DNA of 64,000 nucleotides. It comes from a bacterium. GTDB lineage: Bacteria; Latescibacterota; Latescibacteria; Latescibacterales; Latescibacteraceae. This document shows positions 6,420-59,011 of the stretch, piece after piece. The position numbers and the translations under genes were made by a program. The stretch lies in contig JAJFUH010000107.1 in NCBI GenBank assembly GCA_021372535.1, positions 5,768 to 69,767 of the forward strand, read 5' to 3'. The notes below the pieces were generated by a model. The model had not been told where the DNA came from. It ran no database searches and saw only the letters and a program-made list of their open reading frames with translations. How positions within the stretch are numbered: position 1 is the first letter of the stretch; each line of letters opens with the position of its first letter.

Positions 6420-6493
6420 TGCCCCGTCGTCCAATGGCAAGACAGCTGACTCTGGATCAGCCTATCGAGGTTCAAATCCTTGCGGGGCAGCCA
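6420..6493 (+). tRNA. tRNA-Gln (anticodon CUG)
   Basis: I folded it by hand. The acceptor stem is TGCCCCG/CGGGGCA, with the U1:A72 pair typical of bacterial tRNA-Gln. The anticodon stem is GCTGA/TCAGC with loop CTCTGGA, giving anticodon CUG. The T-arm is GAGGTTCAAATCCTT (GAGG/CCTT). G73 and CCA are encoded. Confidence 0.85.
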
Positions 6494-6514
6494 TAATAAA
6501 ACGAGTATTACCAG

Positions 6515-6551
6515 CCACTTACAGGATATTATGTGAGTGGTTTTTTGTTTT
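6515..6551 (+). terminator. Rho-independent terminator downstream of tRNA-Gln
   Basis: The hairpin CCACTTACA...TGTGAGTGG is followed by TTTTTTGTTTTT. Confidence 0.6.
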
Positions 6552-6937
6552 TATATGCGTCTGGTACTACTTATAATACTACTCGGAAATAGGGGTATTT
6601 GTCAATTCTGAAGCTCGTTACATAGGTTACCCAGGATGATCGTTTACGGAAAGGACGTCAACGGACGTTCGTGTGACGTTTGACTGATATATCGATGGTT
6701 CACTTTGACCTTTTTTCACAATAATTTATTATTAATGAATTTATCTAAAATATCAAATGCCAACTTACTACACAAAATACCTATAATAAAGAAAAACTGA
6801 ATTTATTTCAACATAATCCGCAGGATATCGATTTTGTGATGAAACAATGCAAAAACTTTAAGTAATAAGCGAATAAGATGGGATTTTATAACATTGAAGA
6901 AATGACTATAAGGTATTGATTCTATAAGCTGTTTATC

Positions 6938-7010
6938 AATTGATCAATTTTGAGCAGATTTTCCTTGACTTTTAGCAATCAAGAAAGTAATATACACTCA
7001 ATTGATCAAA
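6938..7010 (+). promoter_or_regulatory. Candidate autoregulated promoter/operator of the BlaI-like repressor
   Basis: Palindromic AATTGATCAATT (6938–6949) and AATTGATCAA (7000–7009) boxes flank a TTGACT-17-TAATAT promoter (6965–6993). A TGATCA half-site lies at 7013–7018. Confidence 0.4.
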
Positions 7011-7039
7011 TATGATCAGTTCATTCGGAGAAAATAATT

Positions 7040-7435
7040 ATGAATAATAAAAACTTTCAACATTTTACAAAAGTAGAAATGGAATTCATGCAGATACTGT
7101 GGGATCACGGCGAACAATCACCTGAGGATATCAGGAGAATCTTAAAAGAGAATGGACGTGTACTGACTAACGGAGGAACAAGGAGAATTCTTTCAATTCT
7201 TTGCCGTAAAGGCCACATAACCCGAAGGAAAGAAGGAAGAAGTTACGTTTATAATCCAAACGTAAAGAAACAACAGGCATTCAAAGATATTCTTATTGAT
7301 CTCAGAAAACGGGTATTTGGTGATTCCGGTATAATAATGATTGCTGCGTTTCTTGACAGTTTCCATGCAAGTGATGATGAATTCAAAGAAATAAAACGTC
7401 TACTTGAGAATTATAAGAAGGATCGGGACAAGTGA
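7040..7435 (+). CDS. BlaI/MecI/CopY-family winged-helix transcriptional repressor
   Basis: The 131-aa protein has the penicillinase-repressor architecture. Its stop overlaps the start of a downstream M56-peptidase sensor, which is the canonical blaI–blaR1 pairing. The gene order is reversed relative to staphylococcal bla. Confidence 0.75.
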   Translation: MNNKNFQHFTKVEMEFMQILWDHGEQSPEDIRRILKENGRVLTNGGTRRILSILCRKGHITRRKEGRSYVYNPNVKKQQAFKDILIDLRKRVFGDSGIIMIAAFLDSFHASDDEFKEIKRLLENYKKDRDK

Positions 7436-10311
7436 CTTTATTTGAGATAGTGAATACTTTTAACAGGCTTGGTTTTTTAATATTCCGATATCTGGTGTCG
7501 TTTTTTTGGCAGTCTACTCTGTTTTTTGGAGCCGTACTTCTTGTTTTTATATTGTTTCGGAGGTTAAGCTCTTCAATAAAGCAGAGAATACTGTTTGTAT
7601 CTCTGTGCGCGATACCCCTTATTCCTTTAGTTTCGAAAACCGTCATAGATATAGGGGTGCCATATATAAGAATACCCGTGATACCCACATATTTTCCCCA
7701 GTCTGTGGTTTTTGACCGGATTATTCAGCCAACAGTAACTGAAAACCCTCTTGTTATCGGCGAATCAACCCGCCAGATCAATCCTGTTTACAAAAATACC
7801 ACTCTATCGAAATCAAACAGCCTCACATATGGCAGAATTATACTGTCTCACCCATGGATGTTCGTACTGTTAATATATATGGCAGTTCTGATATTGTTTC
7901 TTAAAAGAATAACGGCCAAATGGGTGGCTTTAAGGGCCTTGGCAGATTCCAGTACATATGATCTTGATCCGGAAACCAATCATATAGTACAGGAGGCATC
8001 TTCAAAAATAAAATGCAACCAGTCTTTCAGGGTTGTTGAGAACGAAGACATCGTATCTCCCATGGTTTTTGGCATTATAAAACCTGTTATCGTTATACCA
8101 AAAAGTGAAAAGTGGAATTTCTCAAGGTCTGATATGTATTTGATGTTTCTCCATGAGATTACTCATATAAAGAGAAAGGATCAACTTGTTTTCCTGATTG
8201 TCTCGATAATCAGAGCATTCTTCTTTTTCCATCCAGTCATCTGGATTGTTGCATGGCAACTTTTATTGTTGGCAGAGAAGTCTTGCGATGATTCGGTTCT
8301 CGATATACAGGAAAACCCCATCTCATACGCGTCGTTGTTGATTAAAATCATGGAAAATGCCAGAAATCAATCATTTAGTTTAAATGTCGCAGCAAATCTT
8401 GGTTTCCCGAAAAGTATGTTTTATAAAAGGATTATTTCTCTGCTCCTTGAGCACAAACACCATCAAAGAAAATATTCAATATTTGCAATAACTGCCTTTT
8501 TCGCCCTGCTGATCTCATCATATATCGTCACTGCCGCAATCCCACTGTCAGAATCGTTAAAAACATTGATCAACTCTAACAATTTAATGTCGAGATTTCT
8601 GATTTCGGAAAACATTGGTGTGAGAAATCAAATCCAGTATAATGCAACGGCTTATGCTGTCCCCCTTTATGGAATAACAATTGACGGTCGACTTGAAGAT
8701 TGGCCCCCAAACATGACACGGTATCCGATTCTGAATTATGGCAAAACATATGGCCCTACTGATATTGATTACGAAGATTTGAGTAAAAGCAGTGACCTGA
8801 GCCCACATTTCATGGTTGGCTACAATCCCGATAAAAACCTGCTCTACCTGGCTGTCATCGTTCGAGACGATATCATGTTTTCATTCAGTGAACATGCCAC
8901 CCTTTCGTTATTCGACTATCCCGATGCATGTGAAATCTATCTTTCGGGTAAGAAAAAGAACTCGATAATATCCATGAATGAAACCTTGACTGCAAATGAA
9001 TTGCCTGTTTTACAGTATGTAATGACCGCTTCAGGAATAATCTATAATAAAAATGTACCGAATACCGACATATCGAGGAACCCGATTCTTGTTATGGGTG
9101 ATATTACAAAGACAAAAACGCACGCGGTCAGCTCCAGGACTGGCGATGTCACCGTATATGAGTGGGAACTGGAGGTCTTTGATAAATACCCGGATAACAA
9201 AACACAGCTTATACCGGGTAAAACCATCGGCTTCGATGTTGCCGTTGTCGACAGGGATCATGAAGATGAATTCTCGGCATGGGGATGTTGGGGACCCTCC
9301 GGATATTTGAAAGTTGCAAATACATATCTGATAGGAGATATAGTCCTTTTAAGAGACAACAACAATTTTGGTTCTGTCACCGGCACCGTGGTCAATTCTC
9401 AAACCGGTCAGGGGATTTTCAAACAGATTATCGATGTTTACCGGCAGGGGAAACCAATTACCTGGACCATGAGTGATTCTGATGGAAAGTTTGGGATGCA
9501 GTTACCGGAAGGTCAATATGTCTTGAAACCACGCTATCATGATAAAGGGCATGAAATTGCCTTAACGGTAAAATCCGGCGAGTCGACGACAACGGACGTC
9601 ATGCTGGATATTACGAAAATTCCCGAAAAACTGCTGGAAACCATTAAACTGTATTCAAATCTATCCAGTTATTCCGATGTCACAGAAGTTAACGCTGTTA
9701 TGGGAATCCAGAATACAAAGATTGAATTCGCATTTAAAAATCCAAATTTTATGTATCAGAGTTATACAAGGATTGAAAACGGAGATAAATGTATAATATC
9801 ATGTGATGGAAGTAAAATGAGGGTAAATCGCGAGAATTCAGAAGAGTTCCTGGAAAAGAAAGCTCCCGGCGAACTCAGCGTATTTACAATCAGCTCGCTG
9901 ACAAACCAGCCTAGTGGCGGTTTTGTGCACCAGCTGATGCTATGCAGGGAACCGCTCAAACAACTGAATGAAGATCTCATCAGTGTTCGGTACCTCAGTT
10001 CCGACAGAATCGATGGTGTTGAATCTGACATTTTTGAGATAAACATGCGGGCGGGGACATTCACTACCTCGACTCGCTGGACACCGGATTATACAATCGT
10101 GTACCGTCTCTGGATAGGGAAACGGGATAAGGTAATCCGCAAAGTTGTGACAGAAATGGAGGAACGGCTGGATATTGCAAAAGCATCGGAAGATAATATG
10201 GTAACGAAAGTGAGACACTACTCCGTAACACATCGTCACCGCAAAATCAAACTCAATCCGAAGCTTATGGATACGTTATTCAAAGATAATCACAACCGTG
10301 TGGCAATATAG
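7432..10311 (+). CDS. BlaR1-like M56 peptidase signal transducer with a large C-terminal extracytoplasmic sensor region (CBM9/DOMON-like, carboxypeptidase-regulatory-like and LolA-like modules)
   Basis: N-terminal TM helices are followed by the HExxH motif FLHEITHIKRKD, typical of M56 BlaR1. A further ~650 aa follow. The DDSVEI/EFSAWG-type motifs resemble CBM9-like sugar-binding domains. There is no penicillin-binding domain. Confidence 0.7.
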   Translation: MTLFEIVNTFNRLGFLIFRYLVSFFWQSTLFFGAVLLVFILFRRLSSSIKQRILFVSLCAIPLIPLVSKTVIDIGVPYIRIPVIPTYFPQSVVFDRIIQPTVTENPLVIGESTRQINPVYKNTTLSKSNSLTYGRIILSHPWMFVLLIYMAVLILFLKRITAKWVALRALADSSTYDLDPETNHIVQEASSKIKCNQSFRVVENEDIVSPMVFGIIKPVIVIPKSEKWNFSRSDMYLMFLHEITHIKRKDQLVFLIVSIIRAFFFFHPVIWIVAWQLLLLAEKSCDDSVLDIQENPISYASLLIKIMENARNQSFSLNVAANLGFPKSMFYKRIISLLLEHKHHQRKYSIFAITAFFALLISSYIVTAAIPLSESLKTLINSNNLMSRFLISENIGVRNQIQYNATAYAVPLYGITIDGRLEDWPPNMTRYPILNYGKTYGPTDIDYEDLSKSSDLSPHFMVGYNPDKNLLYLAVIVRDDIMFSFSEHATLSLFDYPDACEIYLSGKKKNSIISMNETLTANELPVLQYVMTASGIIYNKNVPNTDISRNPILVMGDITKTKTHAVSSRTGDVTVYEWELEVFDKYPDNKTQLIPGKTIGFDVAVVDRDHEDEFSAWGCWGPSGYLKVANTYLIGDIVLLRDNNNFGSVTGTVVNSQTGQGIFKQIIDVYRQGKPITWTMSDSDGKFGMQLPEGQYVLKPRYHDKGHEIALTVKSGESTTTDVMLDITKIPEKLLETIKLYSNLSSYSDVTEVNAVMGIQNTKIEFAFKNPNFMYQSYTRIENGDKCIISCDGSKMRVNRENSEEFLEKKAPGELSVFTISSLTNQPSGGFVHQLMLCREPLKQLNEDLISVRYLSSDRIDGVESDIFEINMRAGTFTTSTRWTPDYTIVYRLWIGKRDKVIRKVVTEMEERLDIAKASEDNMVTKVRHYSVTHRHRKIKLNPKLMDTLFKDNHNRVAI

Positions 10312-10873
10312 TCATAAAAAACAAATATATATTGTTTTTTATGTTCTTATGGCAGTCTTGCTGTTTGCATGCAATAATATCATGATTTTATAATTCGGCA
10401 GAAAACAGGCTTCATACATCATTCTCAGGATTCGATGTAACAAATCGCTGTAATGTTTCATCAAAGTGGTGAAATTGTATGTAATCGGTATTAAATACGC
10501 CCCAAAGTGATCAATATTGATCATTTCAAAAGAAACTATTATAAGGATTAAAAAAGTTCCATTCAATCATCTTTAAAGAGGCTTTATCACCTCATGAAAG
10601 AATGGAGAGTCAGCTTGTTCCGTATGAACGTACATAGTGAAAAATCATTCTTTAGCAATCTTGTTGAATTCTGGAGACACGTATTTCGAGATTCAGATTC
10701 GTTGACGGGCGACAATTACTTGGTCAGCAAAGACGAATACGAAGAAATTGAACTGTTGTTTCGCAGCCCCGGTAAAGAACGTACGAGTGGTATAGAGAAT
10801 GAATAACCTGGATTTAAACATTGAAAAGAATTCCGGGCCATAAAATGTATAATGAAAAAAGGAGGTATCTGCC

Positions 10874-11965
10874 GTGAAAAAAAATCTGAAAATGGAATTT
10901 CTGCTCTTATTAGTTATTCTCCTCGTTTTTGCGTGTCTGTCCTTGCCGGTTTCCGGCGAAAATCATGATTATCAGAACGGTGTAAATCCTCAACGTAACG
11001 TACTTGTGGAAGCATTCACGGGTTCATGGTGTAGAAATTGCACAGTAGATATATTGACTGTTGAAAGGTATGTAAGAACGCATAGTAATATCTTTATGCT
11101 GGCGTATCATTTCAATGATCAGATGGCCACAGAAGATATCGAGGTGGTTATTTTCAGATTTACTGACGCATTTCCAGGTTTTGCTGTGGACAGGACTGTT
11201 TATAAAGACCTTAATTCCCTTGTTGCGAGAATGAACAACTGTGCTCAAAAAATTGAGGAGAGGTTATTGATTCCGCCCCGAATGACAATCGATCTGAGTT
11301 ATACGTATTCTCCTGAATCAAGACTGATCGATCTCGATGTCGCTCTTCATACCCTTGAGACAATCGATGCGAATTGTTATCTCCATATCGTTGTTGCTGA
11401 GGACAGCCTTAAATATCCGCAGCAAGGGGGAGCCGATCCATTCTACCACATGCATACCGTGCGCGACTTTATAACGGGAACAGACGGCGAACGGCTTAAC
11501 GATTCTGTACTCGCGGAGGGAACCGATATTCACAGGAATTATGCATACACACTGCAAAGCAAATTCAAACCTGAGAAAATCCGCATCGTTGTATTTGTCA
11601 GCGAAGGAATCGTGGGACCGGTGTGCCAGGCCGAGGAGCTGGTTCTCGTCGAGAACATCGTGACCAGGGTCGATGAATTGACCCCGGATACGTTCCGGGT
11701 GCACGCACCCTATCCTAATCCTTTCAATCCCGTAACAACGATCGAGTTTACTCTTCCCTCGGAATCGCATGTCAGCCTTGTAATGTATGATGTGCTGGGA
11801 AGAGTCGTCGATATTCCCGTTGATCGAACCTTGAGTACCGGGACACACCGGATCGTATGGGACGGCCGCGACAGAAAGGGTATCACGCTTGCTGATGGAC
11901 TGTATCTGTTCCGGCTTACTGCCGGAAATCATATAGCTCATGGGAAAGTGACACTTCTCAGATGA
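10874..11965 (+). CDS. Secreted T9SS cargo protein with an N-terminal CxxC thioredoxin-like (Omp28-related) domain and a C-terminal Por secretion sorting domain
   Basis: It has a signal peptide and the motif EAFTGSWCRNC. The C-terminus (YPNPFNPVTTIEF...GLYLFRLTAG...KVTLLR) matches the T9SS type-A CTD (TIGR04183-like). It is a paralog of 14323..16074 (shared YHMHxVRxxITGTxGERLN). Confidence 0.7.
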   Translation: MKKNLKMEFLLLLVILLVFACLSLPVSGENHDYQNGVNPQRNVLVEAFTGSWCRNCTVDILTVERYVRTHSNIFMLAYHFNDQMATEDIEVVIFRFTDAFPGFAVDRTVYKDLNSLVARMNNCAQKIEERLLIPPRMTIDLSYTYSPESRLIDLDVALHTLETIDANCYLHIVVAEDSLKYPQQGGADPFYHMHTVRDFITGTDGERLNDSVLAEGTDIHRNYAYTLQSKFKPEKIRIVVFVSEGIVGPVCQAEELVLVENIVTRVDELTPDTFRVHAPYPNPFNPVTTIEFTLPSESHVSLVMYDVLGRVVDIPVDRTLSTGTHRIVWDGRDRKGITLADGLYLFRLTAGNHIAHGKVTLLR

Positions 11966-12066
11966 TTGGTAAAAAAAACTTTTCGATTATGGTTTATGAA
12001 TACCATGAGATATTCCGGAATAAATCCATCAATCGGCATAGACAATTTCCACCAAAGGAGAGAGAG

Positions 12067-14238
12067 ATGAGAACTTCAAGGCTGATTTTTATGGCGATCA
12101 TGATTATAACTGTATCACAAGCTCTGGCGCAGGGAACGTGGACGCAATACCCGATAAGAATTGAAAAAATACAAGATATTGTGGTAAAAGACGGCGAATT
12201 ATGGTGTTCTTCGGAACGTAGAGTTTTTACGGTAAATCCATCGACAATGGAGTATAATGAGATTTTTAATGCTGGTTCTGATTATACAGGTGAAATTGAA
12301 AAGAGCACTACAGGTGATGTTTTAGTTGGCCTTGCCACAAAACAGTTCGTGTTTAAAAACGGTACATGGAAAAAAATCCAATATTCAGAACCCAATTCCG
12401 ATATCAGATATCCTGGAGCAGAATACTATGTACCATTTTGTTATGACCCTGACGGGATATGCTGGATGGCGGGCCATGGGATCGGGTTGATTCGTTTTGA
12501 CGGAGAGAAATATTCCAAAGTACCGGATGTTGAGTTTCTCCCGGATGATCGGGTAAAATCAATATTTGCCGGAAGTGATGGCAGAATATGGATCGGTACT
12601 AAAATAGGATTATATTGCTACGACAGAGAATCCGTGGAAAAACTGAGTTATAGCAAGGATAATCCTGAATATCGTGTTAAATGCATAGCGGAGGGATCGG
12701 ATGGTTCAATCTGGATAGGTACTCTGGATGATGGTATATTTAATTACAAAGACGGCTCGTGGAGCCACTATATTCCGGAGAGCAACGGAATTAAATATTT
12801 TGGCACCGGCTCATTACTCGTGGATGATACAGGGAACCTCTGGGCTTCATTAGTTCCTGTGAACTTTGAATGTAATAATCCTAATTCAACGCTTTTTAAG
12901 TTCGACGGTGAAACCTGGTATTCCTACCCCGATCCTGTTACCGCTAAATTAGTGGTGAAGTCATTAACACTCGCTCCTGACGGCACTATATGGGCAGGGA
13001 CGTACAATCAGATTTCTGATAAAGATGCCGGTATACTGCAATTTGACGGCAAAAAGTGGACAAATCACTTCTACAGTGAATTCATACCTCGTAACTTATA
13101 TATATATGGTCTCTTATACCACGATGGTTCATTACTACTGGCAACTGAAAACGAAGGATTATACCAGTATGATGGTACATCGTGGTCACACATCGTAAGC
13201 CCGTTTACCGATGCCAGGTCTGTCGCTGTTTCATCCGATAACAAAATATGGGTAGCAACAAAAGAAAAGCTTTACCGAAATGATGATTCATCATGGAAAC
13301 CTTTTACTTCAAACATGCTGACCGATAATAATATAATAAATCAAATCGCTGTCGGTTCCGATGGAATCGTATGGTGTATGACAAAGAACGGCCTTGTGCG
13401 TTTTGATGGTTCCGTCTGGAAATTGCAGGGTGAGAGCGACGGTATTCCCGATGGGGTCCTTTCAACTATTGCGGCTGATCCTTCCGGCCATATCTGGTTA
13501 GCCTGGTATACTTTTATATCCGATGAATTAATAAGTGGTATTACTGTTTATGATGGTGAAAAATGGACGGAAACGGGAATACCGGATAATTCGAAAGCGT
13601 CCACGGCTATCAATAAAATCATTTTCGGTCCCGAAGGTGAACCCTGGGCCGTCAGCTATAATGAACTTTTCAGATATGACGGTGCAAAATGGGTGAAAGA
13701 ACCGTATGAGTACCGGCAAATAATGGATATCACCTGTGATTCGGAAGGATATCTCTATATAAGAAATGAGATGGGAGTTGACTGTTATAATGGTGAAAGT
13801 AGAATGACCTATATCACTGGCATAGATGTCCCGAATTTGTCCTTTCTGGCAGCAGGTGATAAAGGTATGGTTTTTGGCGTGATGAGAGACGGTGTTTTCG
13901 CGCGGTTCGATCCTTACCGGATTCCAACGGTCGTCGATGAACCATATATAACAACTCCCGGTACATTCCCGATTGTTGGCAATTATCCGAATCCGTTCAA
14001 TATGTCGACAACCGTCTATTTCGAGCTGCCGTCGGAAACGCTGGTCGATCTTGCGATATTCTCAGTTACGGGACAGAAGATACGGACGCTGGTTTCCGAA
14101 CGGAAGAATCCCGGCAGGCATGTAATCGTATGGGACGGTCGCGATGATTTTGGCCGGAACGTATCTTCCGGCATCTATATAAGCCGTCTGCTCGGGGGAG
14201 AACTTACCGCATCATCACGCATGATGTTGTTAAAGTAG
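12067..14238 (+). CDS. Secreted Reg_prop beta-propeller repeat protein with a T9SS C-terminal sorting domain
   Basis: The ORF track gives 11962..14238. The likely start is the Met at 12067 (MRTSRLIFMAIMII..., signal peptide). It has many DG.IW.GT..GL repeats. The CTD is YPNPFNMSTTVYFELP...GIYISRL. Confidence 0.7.
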   Translation: MRTSRLIFMAIMIITVSQALAQGTWTQYPIRIEKIQDIVVKDGELWCSSERRVFTVNPSTMEYNEIFNAGSDYTGEIEKSTTGDVLVGLATKQFVFKNGTWKKIQYSEPNSDIRYPGAEYYVPFCYDPDGICWMAGHGIGLIRFDGEKYSKVPDVEFLPDDRVKSIFAGSDGRIWIGTKIGLYCYDRESVEKLSYSKDNPEYRVKCIAEGSDGSIWIGTLDDGIFNYKDGSWSHYIPESNGIKYFGTGSLLVDDTGNLWASLVPVNFECNNPNSTLFKFDGETWYSYPDPVTAKLVVKSLTLAPDGTIWAGTYNQISDKDAGILQFDGKKWTNHFYSEFIPRNLYIYGLLYHDGSLLLATENEGLYQYDGTSWSHIVSPFTDARSVAVSSDNKIWVATKEKLYRNDDSSWKPFTSNMLTDNNIINQIAVGSDGIVWCMTKNGLVRFDGSVWKLQGESDGIPDGVLSTIAADPSGHIWLAWYTFISDELISGITVYDGEKWTETGIPDNSKASTAINKIIFGPEGEPWAVSYNELFRYDGAKWVKEPYEYRQIMDITCDSEGYLYIRNEMGVDCYNGESRMTYITGIDVPNLSFLAAGDKGMVFGVMRDGVFARFDPYRIPTVVDEPYITTPGTFPIVGNYPNPFNMSTTVYFELPSETLVDLAIFSVTGQKIRTLVSERKNPGRHVIVWDGRDDFGRNVSSGIYISRLLGGELTASSRMMLLK

Positions 14239-14322
14239 ATTGATACGTATGAAATAACAACCGTTCGTCTTTGCAGGATGGACGGTTGTTGATTTTCAGC
14301 CGCGAAGTGACCGTAAAGAGAT

Positions 14323-16074
14323 ATGAACCTTATCGAAAAGGCATCTGTCGTGAAATCAGAGTCGTATACCATGTTTTTCATATATACGCTGGTGTTTTTA
14401 ATAGCTTTGTTTCATGCCGGGACAGCGGTTTCGGGCGATAACTACGAACCGAATGATTCGAGAGAAACGGCATACGAAATATCTTTTTCCGATGGTGTAT
14501 GGAAATCCGAAACGGCAACGATCGACACCCGGGAAGATGCCGACTGGTATTCGTTTTACGGGGAAAGCGATAGTTTCATTTCTATTTCATCCGATCCCAT
14601 TACAAAGTTCGACATTGCTTTTTCTCTCTATTACGGCGATTCAAGACTCACCTGCGCCGACAATTATTTCAGCGGTATGGCTGAAAAAATCGTAAAATAT
14701 CCGCTTGGTAAGGACGGGATATACTATATATGTGTCGGAACTCCCGAATCGACAAAAAAGAGAACCACTACCGATACGGATTCGTTCGGCTCGTATTCAC
14801 TCGAAATAACACTGTATAAAAGTCATACCATTTCCGGAAAAGTAACTGATTCACAAACGGGAAACGCGATATCGTCGGCACGGATCACTGTCGAACATGA
14901 TACCTCATATACAGCCGAGACAGATGTCGATGGAATGTTTGAAGTTATCCTGAAAGGAGCCCTCTCAGGCGAACCATTTGCCATACAGGTTCAAAAAACC
15001 GGCTATATTGCCGAGATTGCCAAAGGGATTGTATCAAATGCAAAGGAAACTGCCGTATCGATAGAACTCGCCCCACTTCCGGACAATTCCCGCAATGTCC
15101 TCCTTGAAGAATTCACCGCAACCTGGTGCACGTGGTGCCCGTATGCTACCGATATACTTGAAGAGATAATCCGCAGCCAGGGCAATGTTATCTCCATTGC
15201 GTACCACATTGAAGATGAAATGAGCACACCCGAAGGAGATCAGCTTGACGATATGTTAAGTCCGGCGCTTCCTCAGGCATTGATCGACAGGACACAATTC
15301 ACTGGAAGCAGTTCCATCCTGGTCAATCGTCAGGAATGGACAAAGCGATGCATCGAACGCTCACAGGTGCCGGCTCCTCTTTCGATCCATATTTCATGCG
15401 ATTATACAGGCTCGTCACGAAATGCTGATGTGACCGTTGACATGCTTTCCCTTTCCGATATGAAGGGAGCGTACAGGATCAATGTGGTTGTCTGCGAAGA
15501 CAGCCTTGATTATGAGCAGCATATCACCGGAAAAGACTATAAAACGATTTCTCCTTACTACCATATGCATGTCGTTCGCCGGATGATTACGGGAACATAT
15601 GGCGAACGGTTAAATACCGATCCGATTCAGGCGCAGACAAATATCCGGAAATACTATTCGTTCACGCTCGATGATTCGATTAATGAAAACTACGCTCGTC
15701 TTGTGGTATTCGTCAATGAAGATTTAAAAAACGGCCTGGGACCAGTGCAGCAGGCTGCACAGTGTACTATTATGGAAGACACGATAACGGAAGTCGAAAT
15801 CGACGAGCGAATCGCCTTTCAGATTCATCCGGCATTCCCGAATCCATTCAATACTACAACGATGATTCCATTCACTCTGACACAGGATAAACACATAGTG
15901 CTGACTGTTTATAACATTGTTGGAGAAAAAGTAACGACACTGACCGACCGTATCTGGCCACCGGGTAAGCATTCCATAATTTGGGATGCTCATGGATTTT
16001 CCAGCGGAATATATTTTTACCGGCTACAGGCGGGTGCGTCGATAGGCACGGGGAAAATGCTGCTGATCAAGTGA
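14323..16074 (+). CDS. Secreted multidomain T9SS cargo protein with PPC-like, carboxypeptidase-regulatory-like and CxxC thioredoxin-like (Omp28-related) domains plus the T9SS CTD
   Basis: It has the EPNDSRETAYEI PPC-type motif, a CxxC motif (EEFTATWCTWCPYA), and the CTD FPNPFNTTTMIPFTL...GIYFYRLQAG. The start may be the Met at 14371. Confidence 0.65.
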   Translation: MNLIEKASVVKSESYTMFFIYTLVFLIALFHAGTAVSGDNYEPNDSRETAYEISFSDGVWKSETATIDTREDADWYSFYGESDSFISISSDPITKFDIAFSLYYGDSRLTCADNYFSGMAEKIVKYPLGKDGIYYICVGTPESTKKRTTTDTDSFGSYSLEITLYKSHTISGKVTDSQTGNAISSARITVEHDTSYTAETDVDGMFEVILKGALSGEPFAIQVQKTGYIAEIAKGIVSNAKETAVSIELAPLPDNSRNVLLEEFTATWCTWCPYATDILEEIIRSQGNVISIAYHIEDEMSTPEGDQLDDMLSPALPQALIDRTQFTGSSSILVNRQEWTKRCIERSQVPAPLSIHISCDYTGSSRNADVTVDMLSLSDMKGAYRINVVVCEDSLDYEQHITGKDYKTISPYYHMHVVRRMITGTYGERLNTDPIQAQTNIRKYYSFTLDDSINENYARLVVFVNEDLKNGLGPVQQAAQCTIMEDTITEVEIDERIAFQIHPAFPNPFNTTTMIPFTLTQDKHIVLTVYNIVGEKVTTLTDRIWPPGKHSIIWDAHGFSSGIYFYRLQAGASIGTGKMLLIK

Positions 16075-16089
16075 AAGCATGGAGAAACA

Positions 16090-16611
16090 GTGATGAACAA
16101 GTATAAATCGTTTGCAACGGTATTCGTTATCTCGTTTTGTTTTTTTGTTCTGCCATATTCTCGATCGTATGCCCGGTCACCTGTCATACCTTTCTCATTC
16201 AAAACGTTGACAAACGAAATCATGCCTGTTGATTCCCTTCTTCAGAAAGGACCGGTACTGATAACATTCTGGGCAATGTGGTGCAAACCGTGCAAGGAAG
16301 AACTGCATGCGCTCAGCAAGGTACATTCCGAGTATCCTTTTGATTCCATTACGATAGTATCCGTGACAATCGATACTCCGCGAAGCATAGACCGTGTCAA
16401 ATCCTATGTTAAAACTCACAATTTCCCTTTTATATGCAGTACCGATCCCGGTAAAGAAATACTGAGAATCTTCAACGTTTCAGGGATTCCCTTTACGGTG
16501 ATTCTCAATAAAAAGCGGGAAGTGATCATGATGCATTCCGGATATGTCCCCGGTGATCTGGACGAATATGGAAAAAAAATCGAAAGCTGTCTGAAAACAG
16601 GAAAAGAATGA
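16090..16611 (+). CDS. TlpA/ResA-like periplasmic thiol:disulfide oxidoreductase (thioredoxin fold)
   Basis: It has a signal peptide and the WAMWCKPC active-site motif, with the size of TlpA-like thioredoxins. Its stop overlaps the start of the next gene. Confidence 0.75.
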   Translation: MMNKYKSFATVFVISFCFFVLPYSRSYARSPVIPFSFKTLTNEIMPVDSLLQKGPVLITFWAMWCKPCKEELHALSKVHSEYPFDSITIVSVTIDTPRSIDRVKSYVKTHNFPFICSTDPGKEILRIFNVSGIPFTVILNKKREVIMMHSGYVPGDLDEYGKKIESCLKTGKE

Positions 16612-18215
16612 ACAATATCGAGAAATACATAATAACGCTTCTTCTTTTTACAATCATACCGGTTCGTGCGTTCGCTTCACTGCCTTCCGTATCCGTCTCG
16701 AACTATTTCCGCTACGGTTTTGGCAACGAGATCATGAATTATAGAAATGAGGACAAGAAATATCTTGAAGAAAAAATCGCTGTTAATATTCACTGGAACC
16801 GTTTTCTGCTCGGCGGACGATATGATTATGACAATCCACCGGAATTTGGTTTTGAACATAGAAAACTGAGAAAATGGTATCTTGAATACAGGAAGGGACA
16901 ATGGAAACTCAGGGGAGGCACGTTCGCGGCCCTTTTTTCAAGGGGTCTGGTTTTAAACGCATACGAAGAGGAAATGATCGGTCATGACAGCGAAATTACC
17001 GGCGTAAACGCGCTGTATGAAAACGAACGCACAACGGTAAATATACTTGCCGGAAGCATGGATTATGAGATGATTCCGGATTTCAGGGATATCGTAACCT
17101 ATAACCTGCGCGGCGGTTCGATACGGAAAAAACTCATCGATTGGTACGCTGTCGGAGGCAGTTTCATACGGAGCGACCTGACCCAGAAAATCGGATATTA
17201 TAAGGTTAAGGACAAATTTTACGTAAATACAGCGGAGTTATGGTCGGAGATTGAAACAGACAATTTCAAGTTGTATGGCGGTATGGCATCAAACTCCCAT
17301 GAAAACAGAGGTCTTTTCACAGAGGGTGAAAACAGCGTATATGTTTCGCTCAACATGAATCTGCCCTCCACAAATGTCAACATTGAGTTCAAAAACTATA
17401 AATTCGGATTGACAACTCCTGAATATTGGGATTACACCCTGTATCGTCACCGGATGCTCGCATTTCAGAATCCTCCCACAGTAGTAAGAGAACACAGCTG
17501 GGTGCTGCTTTCACGACGCACACACAGTGTCAGTTTCAATGATGAGGTCGGTATGCAGTTCGACCTCTATCACAGACTATACCCTGAAACTACGCTCAAC
17601 CTTAACGGATCCGTTGCCGGAAAGCATTACCGGTATGATATGAATGAGTTCGGGGATTTTTCACGCAGAAAAAAGAATTTATCGTGGATACCGTCGCTCG
17701 ATCCCGAATATTCTCCGTTCTGGCAGGTATATGGTGAAGTTGAACACTACTTCCCGAATGGCAGTTCCATTACTGGTGGATTAGCCTATACGTTTGAGAG
17801 GATTTACAACTACTATATACCGGATGTCAGGGAGGAAAACAGGTCGTGTATCATACCCGTCCGGTTTATCTTTCAGCTGCCCGACTTGTATTCGTTACAG
17901 GGCACGGTAGAATATCAGAAATTTAAGGAAACCCTTCACGGCGACCAGTATTTTACCAACAGTTACTTTTCGTTTGGGATAGGCAAATCGCCTTACCTGA
18001 CAGCGGCAGTCGATGCTGAATATGTCACGAAAGGGTACGAGTATGATGATAAAACGCTGTGGTTGATTGGTACAATTCGTTATTGTTTCCGTTCGAGCCA
18101 GATTTTTGAAATAGGATATGGCGAGACACGAGGTGGACTTGTCTGCACGAACGGACGGTGCCGTTATGTTCCGGAATACAAGGGTTGGCGCTTTTCCGCC
18201 GAGATTCACTTCTGA
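16608..18215 (+). CDS. Putative outer-membrane beta-barrel protein of unknown function
   Basis: It has a signal peptide, alternating amphipathic segments rich in Y/G/F, and a C-terminal Phe (…AEIHF), as is typical of OMP barrels. It is the last gene of the T9SS-cargo/thioredoxin operon. Confidence 0.5.
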   Translation: MNNIEKYIITLLLFTIIPVRAFASLPSVSVSNYFRYGFGNEIMNYRNEDKKYLEEKIAVNIHWNRFLLGGRYDYDNPPEFGFEHRKLRKWYLEYRKGQWKLRGGTFAALFSRGLVLNAYEEEMIGHDSEITGVNALYENERTTVNILAGSMDYEMIPDFRDIVTYNLRGGSIRKKLIDWYAVGGSFIRSDLTQKIGYYKVKDKFYVNTAELWSEIETDNFKLYGGMASNSHENRGLFTEGENSVYVSLNMNLPSTNVNIEFKNYKFGLTTPEYWDYTLYRHRMLAFQNPPTVVREHSWVLLSRRTHSVSFNDEVGMQFDLYHRLYPETTLNLNGSVAGKHYRYDMNEFGDFSRRKKNLSWIPSLDPEYSPFWQVYGEVEHYFPNGSSITGGLAYTFERIYNYYIPDVREENRSCIIPVRFIFQLPDLYSLQGTVEYQKFKETLHGDQYFTNSYFSFGIGKSPYLTAAVDAEYVTKGYEYDDKTLWLIGTIRYCFRSSQIFEIGYGETRGGLVCTNGRCRYVPEYKGWRFSAEIHF

Positions 18216-18270
18216 ACCGAAATGAATTCGAATAAGAGAATAAATAGTTATCTTTATTATTGTGTCAGTT

Positions 18271-18405
18271 TGTGTTAGAAATGGTAGAATATAAAGGCAA
18301 TGGTGTGAATAGTAAACTTAGATATAATTTTTATAAGTGCAGAGGCCATGTAGCATTAGATTGTTTATTAATGATTTACGATTATTTATTGAATCCCCTT
18401 AAAAT
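18271..18405 (+). repeat. Conserved AT-rich island-end sequence, copy A. It is homologous to 59012..59167.
   Basis: I aligned it by hand to the segment preceding the partial tRNA-Ala. The identity is about 75–80% (by eye) over roughly 135–150 bp (tgtgtcagtttgtgttagaaatggt...ataagtgcagaggccatgtagcattag... versus gtgtgccagtttgtgccagaaatggtg...ataaatgcagaggccatgacgtattag...). Confidence 0.8.
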
Positions 18406-18406
18406 G

Positions 18407-18453
18407 TGACTCTGGATCAGCCTATCGAGGTTCAAATCCTTGCGGGGCAGCCA
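18407..18453 (+). repeat. Direct repeat of the tRNA-Gln 3' half (from the anticodon stem to CCA). It is a candidate attR.
   Basis: Its 47 nt are identical to 6447..6493. The downstream ~60 bp, including a terminator hairpin, are about 85% identical to the sequence downstream of the intact tRNA-Gln. Confidence 0.9.
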
Positions 18454-45570: not shown

Positions 45571-45647
45571 GGGGCTATAGCTCAGCTGGGATGAGCGCCT
45601 GACTGGCAGTCAGGAGGTCGTCGGTTCAATCCCGACTAGCTCCACCA
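45571..45647 (+). tRNA. tRNA-Ala (anticodon GGC)
   Basis: I folded it by hand. The acceptor stem GGGGCTA/TAGCTCC has the G3:U70 alanine identity pair. The anticodon stem is CCTGA/TCAGG with loop CTGGCAG, giving anticodon GGC. The T-arm is GTCGGTTCAATCCCGAC. CCA is encoded. Confidence 0.85.
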
Positions 45648-46522
45648 ATATTTTCGATTTGTTTATTTTAAATTGGAGACATATCCCCACGAGGTTCCTT
45701 TTAGTCCGGAATTCCCTATATCAAAATCATAAGCAGTAAAATTTCTTTTCATATTCTTATTTTAAACGATTACTATCCTATTAATAATCTTATGCAAGTA
45801 TTTTCTTCACGTTGATTTGGATGTAGCCCTCCGGTTTTCTCACTGGCAGATAAATGAATTTTTCCTCGAATCAATCCCGTCTGATGCAGTAGAAAGAGAG
45901 AATAAAAACTTCTCATAGAGAAACATATAATGAAAACGAAAGCAGCCATAATAACAATCGGATTTGTCTGGTCAACAACCGTGTATGTCATGCTTTTCGC
46001 ATCAGTTTGAAGTCTGCTGATAACCATCGTCTGAATTTATCCTTTTCCTTCAAATTAATAAGGCGCCTTTAATGGGTGCCTTTTTTGTTGGGGAAAGTGA
46101 TGGCCTGGTAAATGGTAATTACATATAAGGCGAAAAAAGCGTGTATCAAACCGTATGAGAAAAACAGAGGACTTATTATGTGATAAGTATAAAAATATAG
46201 GGGAAGTGGGTGTTTTACCATGATACTATCGTCGAGAAATTCTTTTATTCAAGCTTCCACAAAATAGCAATACACCCTCTAAAAAACTTCACTAACACAC
46301 CGACTGTTCCAGATTACGAACATTGTTCGGATTTCGGAACATTCCGTTGAGCCGATGAATGATATCGAATCGGAATCGACGTTTCTCATTCCGTTATTTA
46401 ATAAAATAAAAATCAATTAACATCAATAATAACAAATAAATGAATTCTGCACAGTTTTTAAAATGTATGAATGGTATTGTTTTTGCTCTTCTCATGGAAT
46501 AAAAAAACGAAAGGAGAATTAC

Positions 46523-48112
46523 ATGAAAAGAGCAGTTATGATTTCTTGTTTTTCGTTTCTGTCTGTACTTGTCTGTACATATTCGGTTCCGGCTCAGACG
46601 TTGAATACTATTCTGGCCAAGCTCCAGACGGTAGAAGAACGTCTCAACGAGCACGAAAAAAACTCCGGAGCTGAAATATCGAAGCAGATCGATAAAGCTC
46701 TTGCAGTCAGACTCGCATCAATCGAGTCTGACCGAAAAAGCGAGCAGGTGCAGGTGAAGTCGAATTTTGCGAAGGTGGACAGCCTTGCCATCAATACCCA
46801 GATCGATTCTACGATAGCCTCTCTCAGGTCTCAAATCGACCTCCTGCAGGAAAGCGTTAAGGAAATGAAAAATACCATAGAAAATCAGGCTGATGACGAG
46901 AGCAAAGCTGTCGCAATGGCACCACAAAATAATCCTCTCATGACGGCTGCAGGCATGATAAACCACGGAGATCAGGCAATTACAACTACCAGTTCTATCG
47001 AATCGGTTACACCAGTAAACAATTCGACAATGGTCGAAATTGATTATACCCGGTCTCCTTTGGAAATCGAGCATGTTTATTCCGGTGAGTATTTTTCCAA
47101 AATTCACGGGGGTATGGAAAAAAAGAACCGGGGAGATTATCGGGGTAACTTTGATCTGACTGTTTCGGCAAGCAGCGAAGCGCTGGGACTTTGGAAAGGT
47201 ACAACATTCAGCGTTGACTTTCAGAACGGCAATGGCAGAGGTATAAGCGAATCGTATGTTGGTGACTACCAGGTTCTCAGTAATATCGATGCGGGTAACT
47301 TTACCCAGATAAGCGAATACACTCTCTGTCATTCTTTTGCCGGTAACCGGTTCATGATAAAACTCGGCAAACAGGATGCGAATGAGGATTTCAATGTCGC
47401 TGACAACGCGGGCGATTTTATCAATTCTTCATTTGGTATCATGCCGAATGTCCCCCTTCCGACTTTCCCCGATCCCGGGCTTGGAATATCGGTATTCTAC
47501 ACTCTTTCTGACAACATACAAATTAAAGCGGGACTCTTCGACGGCCTTAGTCATGGAGGTTCGTGGGGATTTAACACCGCTTTCAGTTCCCACGGGGAAA
47601 GCAGTTCGGTCATGGAATTATCATATGGTTCGAGCCTTCTGCCGTTCTTTAAAAAACGGGGCACATTCAAAATTGGACTCTGGCGTCACGGCGGTCTGTA
47701 TGCACCTGTTGCAGGAACTGGAAGCAAATCGGAGAACCTTGGCGGATATTGTATCTATGAACAGGGGATTTTGGGTTATGCTGAATCTGATCATCACCAT
47801 GTAGATATGTTTTTGCAGTATGGATATGCTGACAGGGAAATAAGCGCCATACCAAATTATGCAGGAATCGGATTCAAAGCAGACGGTCTCATTACGGGAC
47901 GTCCTGATGACAGTATGGGTATCGGAGCAGCATGTGCGCTTGTTAACCCTGAAATGAAAGACATGAAAGGAGAAACAGCATTTGAATACTATTACCAGAC
48001 AACCATAATGGGTAAACTGACATTACAGCCCGATGTACAATATATTATTAATCCCGGAGGTATGTATGACAATGCACTCGTAACCGGTATGCGGGTATAT
48101 ATTAATTTTTAA
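46523..48112 (+). CDS. Outer-membrane porin with an N-terminal coiled-coil segment (OprB-like or phosphate-selective-like; family uncertain)
   Basis: It has an AAGGAG RBS, a signal peptide, a ~100-aa coiled coil and a beta-barrel-like C-terminus ending in ...YINF. The ORF track start is 46463. Confidence 0.5.
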   Translation: MKRAVMISCFSFLSVLVCTYSVPAQTLNTILAKLQTVEERLNEHEKNSGAEISKQIDKALAVRLASIESDRKSEQVQVKSNFAKVDSLAINTQIDSTIASLRSQIDLLQESVKEMKNTIENQADDESKAVAMAPQNNPLMTAAGMINHGDQAITTTSSIESVTPVNNSTMVEIDYTRSPLEIEHVYSGEYFSKIHGGMEKKNRGDYRGNFDLTVSASSEALGLWKGTTFSVDFQNGNGRGISESYVGDYQVLSNIDAGNFTQISEYTLCHSFAGNRFMIKLGKQDANEDFNVADNAGDFINSSFGIMPNVPLPTFPDPGLGISVFYTLSDNIQIKAGLFDGLSHGGSWGFNTAFSSHGESSSVMELSYGSSLLPFFKKRGTFKIGLWRHGGLYAPVAGTGSKSENLGGYCIYEQGILGYAESDHHHVDMFLQYGYADREISAIPNYAGIGFKADGLITGRPDDSMGIGAACALVNPEMKDMKGETAFEYYYQTTIMGKLTLQPDVQYIINPGGMYDNALVTGMRVYINF

Positions 48113-48178
48113 ACAGATGAAGTAACGTTAGCTTCATGTATCATTTAATCACTCACTCTTGGAAAAGGAAATGTCTCG

Positions 48179-49828
48179 ATGTTCACAAACATGAAACTTT
48201 CAGCGAAAATGACCCTGATGGGCGCAGGCATTGTCTTTGCTCTCGGGATACTCGGATTTATCGTGTACCATTCCAATTCGACCATCAAGGCAACAATGGA
48301 AATCAGCGACGAGATGACCAGTGAAAACAATATCGTCCAGGATACCAGAGAAAGCGAACTCCGTATGATCAGCCTTGTGAGAGCGGCGCTTCTTGACAGG
48401 GAAGATGGTGAAATTGAATCAGGAAGAATGAATACTATTACCCAGTCCGTGGAAACGATAAAAAAGAATCTCGCCGAAATAGAAAAATTAGCGGATAATG
48501 ACGTGGAAAAAGTAAATCTTAAAATAGCCAGCGATAATCTCGATCTCCTGACGAAGATAATTCAGGAAGATTTGGTTAAACTTATTGCACTCTACAAAAA
48601 CAAGGATACCGACCTTGCGAAACTTGAACAGCAGGTGCAGGTTCTCGATTCCCAAATTGAGGAATATGGCAATAAAACAGAAGAGAGTCTTGGTAAAATC
48701 GAAGAATACACGTCCGGGGAGATGAATAAGGCCTCCACAGGTCTTGACAATGCGATTGCGACATCCTCCACGCTGGCACTCATCACGTTCGTGCTCTCTG
48801 TCGTCGGCATTATCCTCGTATTCACCCTCTTTGCGCGTGGTATTATTAAATCACTCAACAACGTTATCGAGGGTTTGACGGCGGGAGCAGAACAAGTTGC
48901 ATCAGCATCACGTCAGGTTTCCGCATCAAGCCAGCAGCTTGCCGAGGGCGCCAGCGAACAGGCGTCGAGTCTCGAAGAAACCTCATCGTCCATTGAGGAA
49001 ATAGCCTCCATGGGCCGTCAGAATGCGGAGAATTCCAACCAGGCCAAGACTATGATGAATGAGGCGCGGAAGATAGTTGAGAAGGTGGATAACCAGATAC
49101 GCGGCCTGGTCGAAGCTACTGAAAAGATCGAAAAGTCGAGTGTGGAAACCGGTAAAATCATTAAAACCATTGATGAAATTGCCTTCCAGACTAACCTGCT
49201 GGCGCTTAATGCTGCGGTCGAGGCCGCACGCGCTGGAGAGGCCGGTGCCGGATTCGCAGTTGTTGCTGACGAGGTGAGGAACCTGGCTATGAGAGCCTCA
49301 GAAGCGGCAAAAAACACCTCCGTCCTGATCGAAAACACCATCAACGCTGTCAAGACCGGAAGCGAGCTCACCAGCTCGACCATGGAAGCGTTTAAAGAAA
49401 ACTCAGAGATATCGGAGAAGATAGGGAAACTAGTCGACGAAATCGCAGCCGCTTCAAACGAACAGGCGCAGGGGCTTGTACAGATTAACACGGCTATTTC
49501 ACAGATGGACCAGGTGACGCAAACAACCGCTGCCAATTCCGAGGAATCGGCTTCTGCCAGCGAAGAGCTCACTTCTCAGGCCTCAGAGCTCAATTCCATG
49601 GTCGAGATGCTTGTTGTTATTGTCGGAGGGAGCAACGGTAACGGTAACGGGCGTGGAGCCATTGCACGGGACGATCATCCGAAAAAGCACTCAGCCGTAA
49701 GTACCAAACTGAATACGCATAATCCGGCTCCGCGGGCGTTGCTTAAAACGAAGTTGAAAACCCATGCGAAGGTTGTCAAGGCCAATGATGTAATTCCGTT
49801 GGATGAAGAAGAGTTTGAAGCGTTCTAA
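48179..49828 (+). CDS. Methyl-accepting chemotaxis protein
   Basis: It has two TM helices and a HAMP-like region. The highly conserved MCP signalling-domain core is present ([36 protein letters not shown]). Confidence 0.8.
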
Positions 49829-49866
49829 TAACGGGAGTTAATTCACGTAAGATAACCTGATGCAAT

Positions 49867-49900
49867 GAAGCGGGGGGTACATTGTGCCCCCCGTTATTTA
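49867..49900 (+). terminator. Rho-independent terminator after the MCP gene
   Basis: A GC-rich hairpin CGGGGGGTACA...TGTGCCCCCCG is followed by TTATTT. Confidence 0.5.
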
Positions 49901-50305
49901 GTCGGTTTGAAAGACTAATTAAACCATATACTTTATTCTTTACAGATATTAAATATCATATAATTGGTATTATATAAGAATTTCACTCTATCTGTTGCGC
50001 GGGGATAACTCTGTCAAGTTAAATTCTTCCAATTCCACTCTCACACTGACTCGCTCTAATGTGCAGAATAATAACGAGTCATCGACAAGGCCTTTCGTGA
50101 GTCCCGCTATGAGATCAAACGAAGGGAAATCCACAGGTTGACAATCAGTATTGAAGCTATCAGCATACAAAGTCTTGTACACCTCGGGCGTGTCACCGTA
50201 ATAGTATGCGTTTTAAATAGCAATTGCTTTGGGCGATACTACTATGCAACATTTTCTCAGGCGATTAGTTTAAAGGGATAATATGAGCTTATAGAGGAAT
50301 AAATC

Positions 50306-58529: not shown

Positions 58530-58927
58530 TCTTCCCGATAACCATCTCTTCATTTTTTTTAAAATACTCCCCGGTATTACGTATTGTGAACAGTGTTCCG
58601 AATACAGAACATGTCCGCCCTCCTGAATACGAACAGACCCAACATCGATATAACTTCTTGTTATACCGTATTTTACTTTGCCAGTTGTATTGATCCGATA
58701 TGGGTTCATTAGCACACATTTTTAAGGACCTTTATGACAGTTTATGTCAGAAATGTTTTGGTAAAAAATCGTTATATATTATTTTATCATAAATTTATGT
58801 TTGTACTGATTTTCAGACTATTTGTTACTATTTTTCGATGAATTGTAGAATTTGTGTAAATAATGGGAATGCATATGGTTACGCTGATTTTATTAAAAAA
58901 GAATAACTTATGAATATTTTAGTGTTT

Positions 58928-58972
58928 CTGCTTGACATACAGGAGGTCACTGGTTCAATTCCAACAGGTAAT
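58928..58972 (+). repeat. Degenerate tRNA 3'-half-like fragment (a decayed additional att copy?)
   Basis: The sequence TTGACATACAGGAGGTCACTGGTTCAATTCCAACAGG resembles the TGAC...AGGAGGTC...GGTTCAAT(C/T)CC... 3' half of tRNA-Ala. Its T-stem complementarity is broken. Confidence 0.35.
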
Positions 58973-59011
58973 AACTCAGGAGTATTAAGAGATTGCGATA
59001 TATTTTAATCT

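Follow-up and report, generated by a model that had tools for sequence, protein, structure and literature searches.

Heterobivalent tyrosine integrases act on a complex attachment site (attP) with arm-type sites, such as P1, P2 and P'1-3 of lambda, and this is also the case for HP1, P22 and L5. Islands inserted into tRNA genes (tDNA islands) with an attP centred on the anticodon were reportedly described by Williams in 2002. The tDNA-island principle and the anticodon-centred class of attP (class A) are both part of the Islander framework (Hudson et al. 2015, PMC4383910). Cis-mobilizable elements (CIMEs), in turn, are elements, derived by deletion from integrative and conjugative or integrative and mobilizable elements, that have lost their integration and transfer genes but kept their left and right attachment sites (attL and attR); they accrete in tandem and have been described as movable with an integrase supplied in trans, an example being CIME19258, related to ICESt1 of Streptococcus thermophilus (PMC5704250). 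Here, we have analyzed a stretch of 64,000 nucleotides (the window; positions 5,768 to 69,767 of contig JAJFUH010000107.1, assembly GCA_021372535.1, from a Latescibacterota-like bacterium) that contains two islands, each ending in a conserved non-coding segment of ~150 bp that abuts a displaced 3' fragment of a tRNA gene. We consider it likely that this segment is the P arm of a lambda-type attP used by tyrosine integrases that cross over at the anticodon-loop region of tRNA genes, the two islands of the window being integrase-less.

The features that define the two islands are the following (coordinates are those of the window, and all the arms, tRNA genes, fragments and islands are on the + strand):

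6420..6493, + strand, intact tRNA-Gln(CTG), target of island 1 (ARAGORN; Rfam tRNA model, 54 bits)
6447..6546, + strand, putative attL core copy of island 1 (direct-repeat family D7, 100 nt)
6513..6620, + strand, putative P' arm of island 1: terminator, then GGTACTAC / ATACTAC repeats and GGAAATAGGGG (homology to metagenome contig L078)
18240..18406, + strand, arm A, putative P arm at attR of island 1 (blastn against arm B; nhmmer family profile)
18262..18278, + strand, GTGTCAG-TTT-GTGTTAG, candidate arm-type integrase-binding sites of arm A, the second repeat 138 bp from the anticodon loop
18407..18506, + strand, putative attR core copy of island 1: displaced tRNA-Gln 3' fragment and terminator-like hairpin (18474-18501)
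45571..45647, + strand, intact tRNA-Ala(GGC), target of island 2 (ARAGORN; Rfam tRNA model, 63 bits)
58998..59167, + strand, arm B, putative P arm at attR of island 2 (nhmmer family profile; GTGYCAG repeat pair)
59022-59038, + strand, GTGCCAG-TTT-GTGCCAG, the corresponding candidate sites of arm B, 139 bp from the anticodon loop
59168..59216, + strand, putative attR core of island 2: tRNA-Ala(GGC) 3' fragment (repeat of 45600-45648)

An earlier note on this DNA had estimated by eye that the segments at the ends of the two islands share roughly 75-80% identity, and formal alignment confirms that the similarity is significant: the mean column identity of arms A and B is 78% (MAFFT), and blastn, run against the entire window, aligns 159 nt at 73% identity (E=2e-23). 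The shared cores that it had quoted are also present as written (cagtttgtgttagaaatggt in arm A, cagtttgtgccagaaatggt in arm B, plus the tgcagaggccatg block). The homology ends at the base immediately preceding the tRNA-derived repeat, and it begins at 18240/18252, ~20-30 nt ahead of the start at 18271 given in that note. The Smith-Waterman score of arm A against arm B is 67 (z=33), and 1000 shuffles that preserved the dinucleotides scored 11.0 +/- 1.7, with 20 as the highest value. The GC content of the arms is low (26% and 35% in A and B, respectively), but no other 170-nt stretch of the window scores more than 15 against arm A, and thus the match is not explained by AT-richness. The arms are the sole DNA common to islands 1 and 2 when the whole islands are compared by blastn.

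The same data bear on the possibility that the similarity is due to chance between AT-rich sequences, or to a common intergenic repeat or miniature inverted-repeat transposable element without any link to tRNA genes. Low GC content is the only point in its favour, and it is refuted by the shuffles, by the uniqueness of the match and by the adjacency to tRNA sequences: the three copies found in the 64 kb (a third one is described below) all abut tRNA fragments, and so do 4 of 4 further full-length copies in metagenomes. When the arms were read, no inverted ends were apparent, no inverted-repeat search having been made. We leave this explanation next to no probability. The two outcomes that could have undone the initial observation, a match dissolving under formal alignment and a ubiquitous motif away from tRNA fragments, were not seen in the window or among the metagenome copies recovered.

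As the earlier note had proposed, each arm abuts a repeat of the 3' part of a tRNA gene on the same strand (Gln at 18407-18506, Ala at 59168-59216), and the intact tRNA gene is located upstream, at a distance of 12-13.5 kb from the fragment. The 6447-6546 copy comprises the 3' part of tRNA-Gln, from 3 nt 5' of the anticodon loop, a 10-nt trailer and a terminator hairpin; its counterpart at 18407-18506 is 89% identical overall, the initial 56 nt (18407-18462 = 6447-6502) being identical. The part of the target that adjoins the arm is reproduced exactly at arm A; at arm B, the identity of 59168-59216 to the resident tRNA-Ala (45600-45648) is 86%. In the fragment of island 2, both strands of the T stem are altered (gcgag/ctcgc against gtcgg/ccgac in the resident gene), indicating that it is the 3' half of a different but functional tRNA-Ala and not a recent local duplication. 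Both repeats start with TGACT, 3 nt 5' of the anticodon loop. The anticodon stem-loops of the two targets are CTGA-CTCTGGA-TCAG (tRNA-Gln) and CTGA-CTGGCAG-TCAG (tRNA-Ala), and the stem pairs CTGA...TCAG are common to both.

The relation between the arm and a second repeat-bearing segment was found in two metagenome contigs, L078 and L076, where the arm, a tRNA core, a terminator hairpin and the second segment, which contains GGTACTAC x2 or TTGCTAC x2 and then a G-rich run, are contiguous. The L078 sequence directly after the arm and its Thr core (1407-1513) is 74% identical over 109 nt to 6513-6620 of the window (E=1e-14). Thus, the window splits what L078 holds contiguous: the P' arm is beside the intact tRNA-Gln and the P arm is 12 kb away, beside the fragment, which is the expected product of recombination between attP and the chromosomal site (attB). 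As read from the two contigs, this passage from attP to attL and attR is the strongest single argument for considering the segment as an attachment-site arm, and it applies to island 1 only. Both att ends are documented for island 1 only; island 2 keeps its attR arm but has no recognisable second arm at its attL end. In the window, L078 and L076, the P' arm carries GGTACTAC as its repeat, and in L079c and L082, two of the relatives presented below, it carries GTGYCAG. Fragment A is also followed by a terminator of the P' type. In L076, a run of 12 G is found directly after the P'-type repeats (~2310-2322, minus strand); it may be an assembly artefact at a junction.

The relatives of the arm were recovered in one metagenome scan with the pattern TGNCAGTTTRTGYYAGAAATGKT, the block kept in all three copies of the window. 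The scan returned 6 contigs, 4 of which hold true homologues. Together with those of the window, six full arms could be aligned, every one of them abutting a tRNA 3' fragment that begins at or just 5' of the anticodon loop:

A (window), tRNA fragment Gln-CTG
B (window), tRNA fragment Ala-GGC
L076, tRNA fragment Arg-ACG
L078, tRNA fragment Thr-TGT
L079a, tRNA fragment Thr-TGT
L079c, tRNA fragment Ala-CGC

The Arg and Thr identities were read from the position of the anticodon loop in the alignment, and the Ala-CGC identity of L079c was confirmed by the presence of the same sequence in an intact tRNA-Ala(CGC) of contig L081. An nhmmer profile of the six arms recovers them at E=1e-25 to 7e-34, with arm A at 18261-18402 (E=7e-29) and arm B at 59021-59165 (E=3e-33). 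The matches of lower significance are a partial copy in L077, cut by the contig end, and a weak one, L079b, the rest being short chance matches. The search for further copies that the earlier note had advised has therefore provided four additional full arms (L076, L078, L079a and L079c), all beside tRNA fragments. Its proposal of one element family with a common P arm that targets several tRNA genes is well sustained by the arms at Arg-ACG, Thr-TGT (x2) and Ala-CGC, by the constant geometry of 138-139 bp and by the GTGYCAG motifs on the integrase side, both described below.

Other candidates were discarded. L075 and L080 match only the first ~50 nt of the arm, within a coding open reading frame (ORF), and were treated as unrelated. 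The 41 matches to CAGTTTRTGYYAGAAATG in IMG/VR were all due to chance on blastn follow-up, a scan of IMG/VR with TATAARTGCAGAGGCCATG gave no match, and the phage and plasmid collections gave none beyond the tRNA part. Three more distant arms were compared with the family (the third, in L079, is described below); two of them, one after the L078 integrase with a Ser fragment and another in L082 with a Val fragment, have a similar architecture, but their alignment is too weak for homology.

All six full arms open with direct GTGYCAG repeats spaced by exactly 10 bp, i.e., one helical turn. There are 2-3 repeats per arm, but 6 in L076, and the second repeat is located 138 or 139 bp from the anticodon loop in six of the six arms, independently of the tRNA. 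A search of the window for the repeat pair yields 2 matches against 0.2 expected. Beyond them, the arm continues with repeats of the TGGTGTGAAA type, then with a GCAGAGGCCAT block and finally with the AT-rich TTATTAATGATTTACGA block. The variants of the repeat co-vary inside an arm (CC/CC in B and L079c, TTCATGTGAA x2 in L079a, TC/TC elsewhere), and such concerted variation would be anticipated if the sites were matched to a single binding protein.

The earlier note had also suggested that the segment could encode a small RNA. According to this explanation, the segment would be a small RNA or a cis-regulatory RNA, possibly transcribed as one unit with the 3' half of the tRNA, up to the downstream terminator. 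The segment is conserved and non-coding (no reading frame is open across all six arms, and a coding function was rejected), and a terminator-like hairpin follows fragment A. Arm A also contains a weak sigma-70-like match (18262-18290), but this match is not kept in arm B. Moreover, the fold and covariance check gave no conserved structure: RNAalifold on the six arms yields -1.65 kcal/mol and 0 compensatory pairs. Rfam has no match in the arm at the gathering threshold, and in E-value mode only sub-threshold matches appear, the best of which (tmRNA, mascRNA) fall on the tRNA-like fragment. The conservation lies in phased direct repeats and not in paired regions. The suggestion is left without support, and we regard an RNA function as very unlikely.

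Direct repeats phased at 10 bp and followed by an AT-rich stretch (GC 26% in A and 35% in B) are also what would be seen if they were the iterons of a replication origin, or the origin of transfer, of a mobilisable element. However, the arm is fixed at 138-139 bp from the anticodon loop, the motif recurs across the core overlapping the 3' ends of integrase genes, and no replication-initiator or relaxase gene was found in the window or in the related contigs examined, all of which makes this origin highly improbable.

No gene encoding an integrase, a serine recombinase, a transposase, a relaxase or a replication initiator was found in the 64 kb when all the sizeable ORFs were searched with Pfam, and hence no cognate tyrosine integrase (PF00589) adjoins the arms in the window. 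No integrase remnant was detected in it either by tblastn with 3 related tyrosine integrases, including the ~800-bp non-coding stretch after tRNA-Ala. The suggestion of the earlier note that the element family lacks an integrase in cis is thus right for both islands of the window but not for the wider group of elements, given that L082 contains an integrase with an HTH_17 gene, and L079 and L081 contain integrase fragments beside the core.

Arm L079c and its Ala-CGC core precede TTTGTGCCAGTTTGTGCCAG and an inverted CTGGCACA, and both motifs overlap the 3' end of a tyrosine-integrase fragment in convergent orientation (L079 2425-2667; RFHDLRH...LGH...RY). The homologues of this fragment have the C-terminal tails NWHKL or GTNWH, which are the translation of the motif. 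L082 contains an excisionase-type HTH_17 gene and a PF00589 integrase gene that is interrupted only by an assembly gap; the integrase is followed by CTGACAC, TGACACA, GTGTCAG and a tRNA fragment (Val-TAC by eye). In L081, a truncated integrase (10001-10435) converges on the intact tRNA-Ala(CGC). L079 also encodes a complete 360-aa integrase and an excisionase-type protein beside a tRNA-Ala(GGC) core, and this core and the 3' half of the intact tRNA-Ala of the window share 96% identity. This match fits the usual model, in which the regenerated tRNA would have an element-derived 3' half and the attR fragment would be the host original. The arm located 5' of this core contains TTTGTGACTAC x2 and resembles the second half of the third copy of the window, arm C; it aligns too weakly with the family, except for L079 74-199 against arm C. 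The truncated integrases at the tRNAs of L079 and L081 indicate that decay by deletion occurs in this element group.

Some additional observations were made on these integrases. All the 15 database homologues of the integrase C-terminal fragment (15/15) have 79-144 aa. One of them comes from a contig of 38 kb, where it converges on an intact tRNA-Ala(CGC). Stubs of truncated integrases beside tRNAs may be common in this element group, but most of the homologues are from contigs of ~1 kb. In L078 (65-1000), TTCTGGGGCAG x2 comes directly after a tyrosine-integrase gene, and a tRNA-Ser(TGA)-like 3' fragment is found on the same strand ~125 bp further on. This layout is analogous to that of the arm, but with the integrase on the P side, and its homology to the arm family is doubtful. 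L079 (1-7313) accumulates at least 5 att remnants in 7.3 kb, i.e., three GTGYCAG arms with Thr, Val-like and Ala-CGC fragments, the integrase C-terminal fragment, and the complete integrase and excisionase-type gene beside the inverted Ala-GGC core; the contig represents either a hot spot of accretion or a chimeric assembly.

These results can be brought together in the following mechanism. The free element would carry, in this order, the P arm, the tRNA 3'-half core, the terminator and the P' arm. Recombination with the chromosomal tRNA gene would place the P' arm beside the regenerated tRNA (attL) and leave the P arm beside the displaced tRNA 3' fragment (attR), 12-13.5 kb away, with a crossover predicted at the anticodon-loop region. 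The phased GTGYCAG repeats are predicted to be the arm-type binding sites for the N-terminal domain of the integrase, and the TGGTGTGAAA-type repeats are probably arm-type sites as well, while the fixed distance from the repeats to the crossover would let the DNA fold into an intasome. By keeping the arm and exchanging the core (Gln, Ala-GGC, Ala-CGC, Arg, Thr), relatives would have been retargeted to other tRNA genes. The islands of the window would have lost the integrase and excisionase module, or would never have carried it. As att-flanked, integrase-less islands they resemble CIMEs, and they may be either fixed relics or movable only with an integrase from elsewhere.

Apart from arms A and B, we have identified a third copy of the arm, which was absent from the earlier note:

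58732..58928, + strand, arm C, degenerate third arm copy (blastn and motif search)
58929..58977, + strand, decayed tRNA 3' fragment after arm C (family D8, 61% identity to tRNA-Ala)

Arm C (ATGACAG-TTT-ATGTCAG-AAATG) shares the opening motif (CAGTTTATGTCAGAAATG) with A and B. The 18-nt motif CAGTTTRTGYYAGAAATG is found 3 times in the window against 0 expected (none in 100 shuffles). Arm C has ~60 nt of additional sequence, similar to the arm of TTTGTGACTAC type found in the integrase element of L079. The loop of its fragment, TTGACAT, suggests Val-GAC by eye, and the fragment shows 75% identity to another one of L079 at ~2946-3017. Arms C and B are in tandem, with ~190 bp between their two tRNA fragments, and the composite of Val-like fragment, arm and Ala fragment recurs in L079 with 66% identity over 341 nt.

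This tandem organization raises the possibility that the arms and fragments are the scars of small elements that were accreted separately and then mostly deleted, and not the ends of single islands of 12 kb and 13.5 kb. The segment would still be a P arm, and the genes in between would be in part native DNA or a patchwork. In addition to the tandem arms and the recurrent composite, this explanation is favoured by the P'-type terminator after fragment A, by a low-GC block that runs to ~27 kb, past the attR of island 1, by the lack of a P' arm in island 2 and by the synteny of the island 1 cargo with L074, where no arm was found. Nevertheless, island 1 has a P' arm at the intact tRNA and a P arm at the fragment, both homologous to the contiguous site of L078, and the 56 identical nt at the start of the Gln repeat speak for one event that took place fairly recently. 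On the whole, we regard this explanation as possible but rather unlikely, and for island 2, with its C/B tandem and no P' arm found, it is plausible.

Several points weigh against interpreting the segment as a P arm that bounds integrase-less islands. No contig holds together an integrase, this exact arm and both att ends, and the association of arm and integrase rests on short, mosaic metagenome contigs. The same site is found on both arms only in the B/L079c subfamily, the P' arm of the subfamily of arm A carrying GGTACTAC. A blastn search with P' arms did not reveal any recognisable P' arm after tRNA-Ala, and no arm was found within the 16.7 kb recovered of L074. A clean empty site was not recovered from the relatives L083 and L084. 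Finally, the 32 matches to ATAARTGCAGAGGCCATG in 185,579 species-representative genomes were all due to chance, this block being a poorly chosen 18-mer and, as judged afterwards, not the best-conserved one of the arm.

The genes carried by the two islands are located as follows:

6621..18239, + strand, island 1 cargo (Pfam; no recombinase)
45648..58731, + strand, island 2 cargo (Pfam; no recombinase)

Island 1 encodes a BlaI/BlaR1-like pair, Omp28 and type IX secretion proteins, an AhpC-like protein and a DUF6029 protein. Its operon is syntenic in L074, with 57-71% amino-acid identity, which indicates that the cargo is typical DNA of the lineage and not phage or plasmid genes. Island 2 consists of the ~800 bp of non-coding DNA already mentioned, followed by an OprB porin, a methyl-accepting chemotaxis protein, a 2273-aa PAS histidine kinase and a sigma-54 activator. 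The gene of this hybrid kinase (50306-57127) contains ~10 PAS domains, and its linker DNA forms 45-nt and 32-nt repeat families. The 45-nt family is also present in a PAS protein gene located outside island 2 (39974-42433), and thus the kinase is related to genes outside the island.

The closest named homologues of the genes that flank the islands in the window belong to Candidatus Latescibacterota. In two Latescibacterota-like contigs, L083 and L084, the flanking genes share 57-62% amino-acid identity, the upstream synteny is kept and a tRNA-Gln(CTG) is found at the same place, next to the Reg_prop orthologue. Neither L083 nor L084 has an arm or fragment within 10 kb downstream of the tRNA-Gln, and the DNA downstream of this tRNA differs in all three genomes, which fits an integration hot spot. 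In L083, this hypervariable region (12253-17400) contains DUF4238 and RNase_T-family genes and small ORFs, resembling a defence island, and in L084 (12150-17520) it encodes a secreted PQQ/deacetylase protein. A terminator and one GGTACTACTCAGAAATA motif follow the tRNA-Gln of L084, which suggests that P'-type sequence is common at the tRNA-Gln locus.

The low-GC block mentioned above (18507-27000, 33-41% GC) extends 8.5 kb past the attR of island 1 and stops at ~27 kb, where the GC content rises sharply to 52-58%. Its products are type IX secretion proteins, another BlaI/BlaR1-like pair (22835-23215, 23267-24601) and a histidine kinase. The boundary at ~27 kb was searched for an arm or fragment, with a negative result. 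From the P'-type terminator after fragment A, the extent of this block and the P'-type sequence of L084, there may be an older island of the same group downstream of island 1, whose far end would have been lost. An AT-rich intergenic motif, AAATTTNNTTTTCGAAAAC... and TATTTTAAACGAT, was observed at 21117-21138, 26621-26642, 26753-26798, 45738-45783, 18783 and 45762, sites that include the DNA immediately 3' of tRNA-Ala and that 3' of fragment A; the motif may act as a promoter or a terminator in this lineage. Lastly, two tandem paralogous GFO/IDH/MocA oxidoreductase genes with TAT signals (36523-37929 and 38260-39558) share 77-79% DNA identity over blocks of 300 nt and 155 nt and have long shadow ORFs on the opposite strand.

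When this locus is compared with the systems described at the beginning, both islands follow the pattern of tDNA islands, in the sense that their ends are marked by an intact tRNA gene and a displaced 3' fragment in the same orientation, starting in the anticodon stem-loop, and that the element supplies a new 3' half and terminator. Islander, however, demands an integrase inside the island and both window islands have none, and therefore its pipeline would discard them; in a strict sense, they are not of the Islander type. The arm resembles the attP of lambda, HP1, P22 and L5 in having short direct repeats with helical phasing at a fixed distance from the core, and in the B/L079c/L082 subfamily the repeats flank the core on both sides and in both orientations, one set overlapping the integrase 3' end, as in lambda-type sites. 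It differs from them in that GTGYCAG, as a candidate site, is unrelated in sequence to the known arm sites, and in that the P' arm of the A/L078/L076 subfamily carries another repeat (GGTACTAC or TTGCTAC).

The similarity to CIMEs lies in the att-flanked islands, in which Pfam and tblastn reveal no integration or transfer genes, and in the tandem att remnants (C and B in the window, several in L079). The putative attL and attR are recognisable for island 1, whereas island 2 has only its attR arm documented. Unlike CIMEs, the islands of the window have as target the anticodon-loop region of a tRNA gene in a Latescibacterota-like uncultured bacterium; no parent integrative and conjugative or integrative and mobilizable element was found, and no conjugation genes were seen in the related contigs. 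The arrangement is thus an ordinary mobile-island scar, here in a poorly studied lineage and with no integrase gene nearby. It provides exact boundaries and a likely mechanism for two islands of a Latescibacterota-like metagenome-assembled genome, and it illustrates the modular evolution of att sites, whose arm is conserved while the tRNA core is exchanged, without any new principle, the useful details being the fixed geometry of 138-139 bp and the use of one arm with at least 5 tRNA cores. The signature of the att arm, i.e., phased GTGYCAG repeats at 138-139 bp from the anticodon loop, could serve to find the integrase-less islands that Islander-like tools discard. It is also conceivable, but in our view quite unlikely, that the cargo islands form a system served in trans, in which islands with just the P arm, the tRNA core and the P' arm would be excised and inserted again by an integrase from the genome or from a helper element, the exchange of the core under a constant arm allowing one arm specificity to serve many tRNA loci (Gln, Ala, Arg, Thr, Val). 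If this were true, Latescibacterota-like bacteria would possess, at their tRNA genes, an analogue of integron cassettes or phage satellites.

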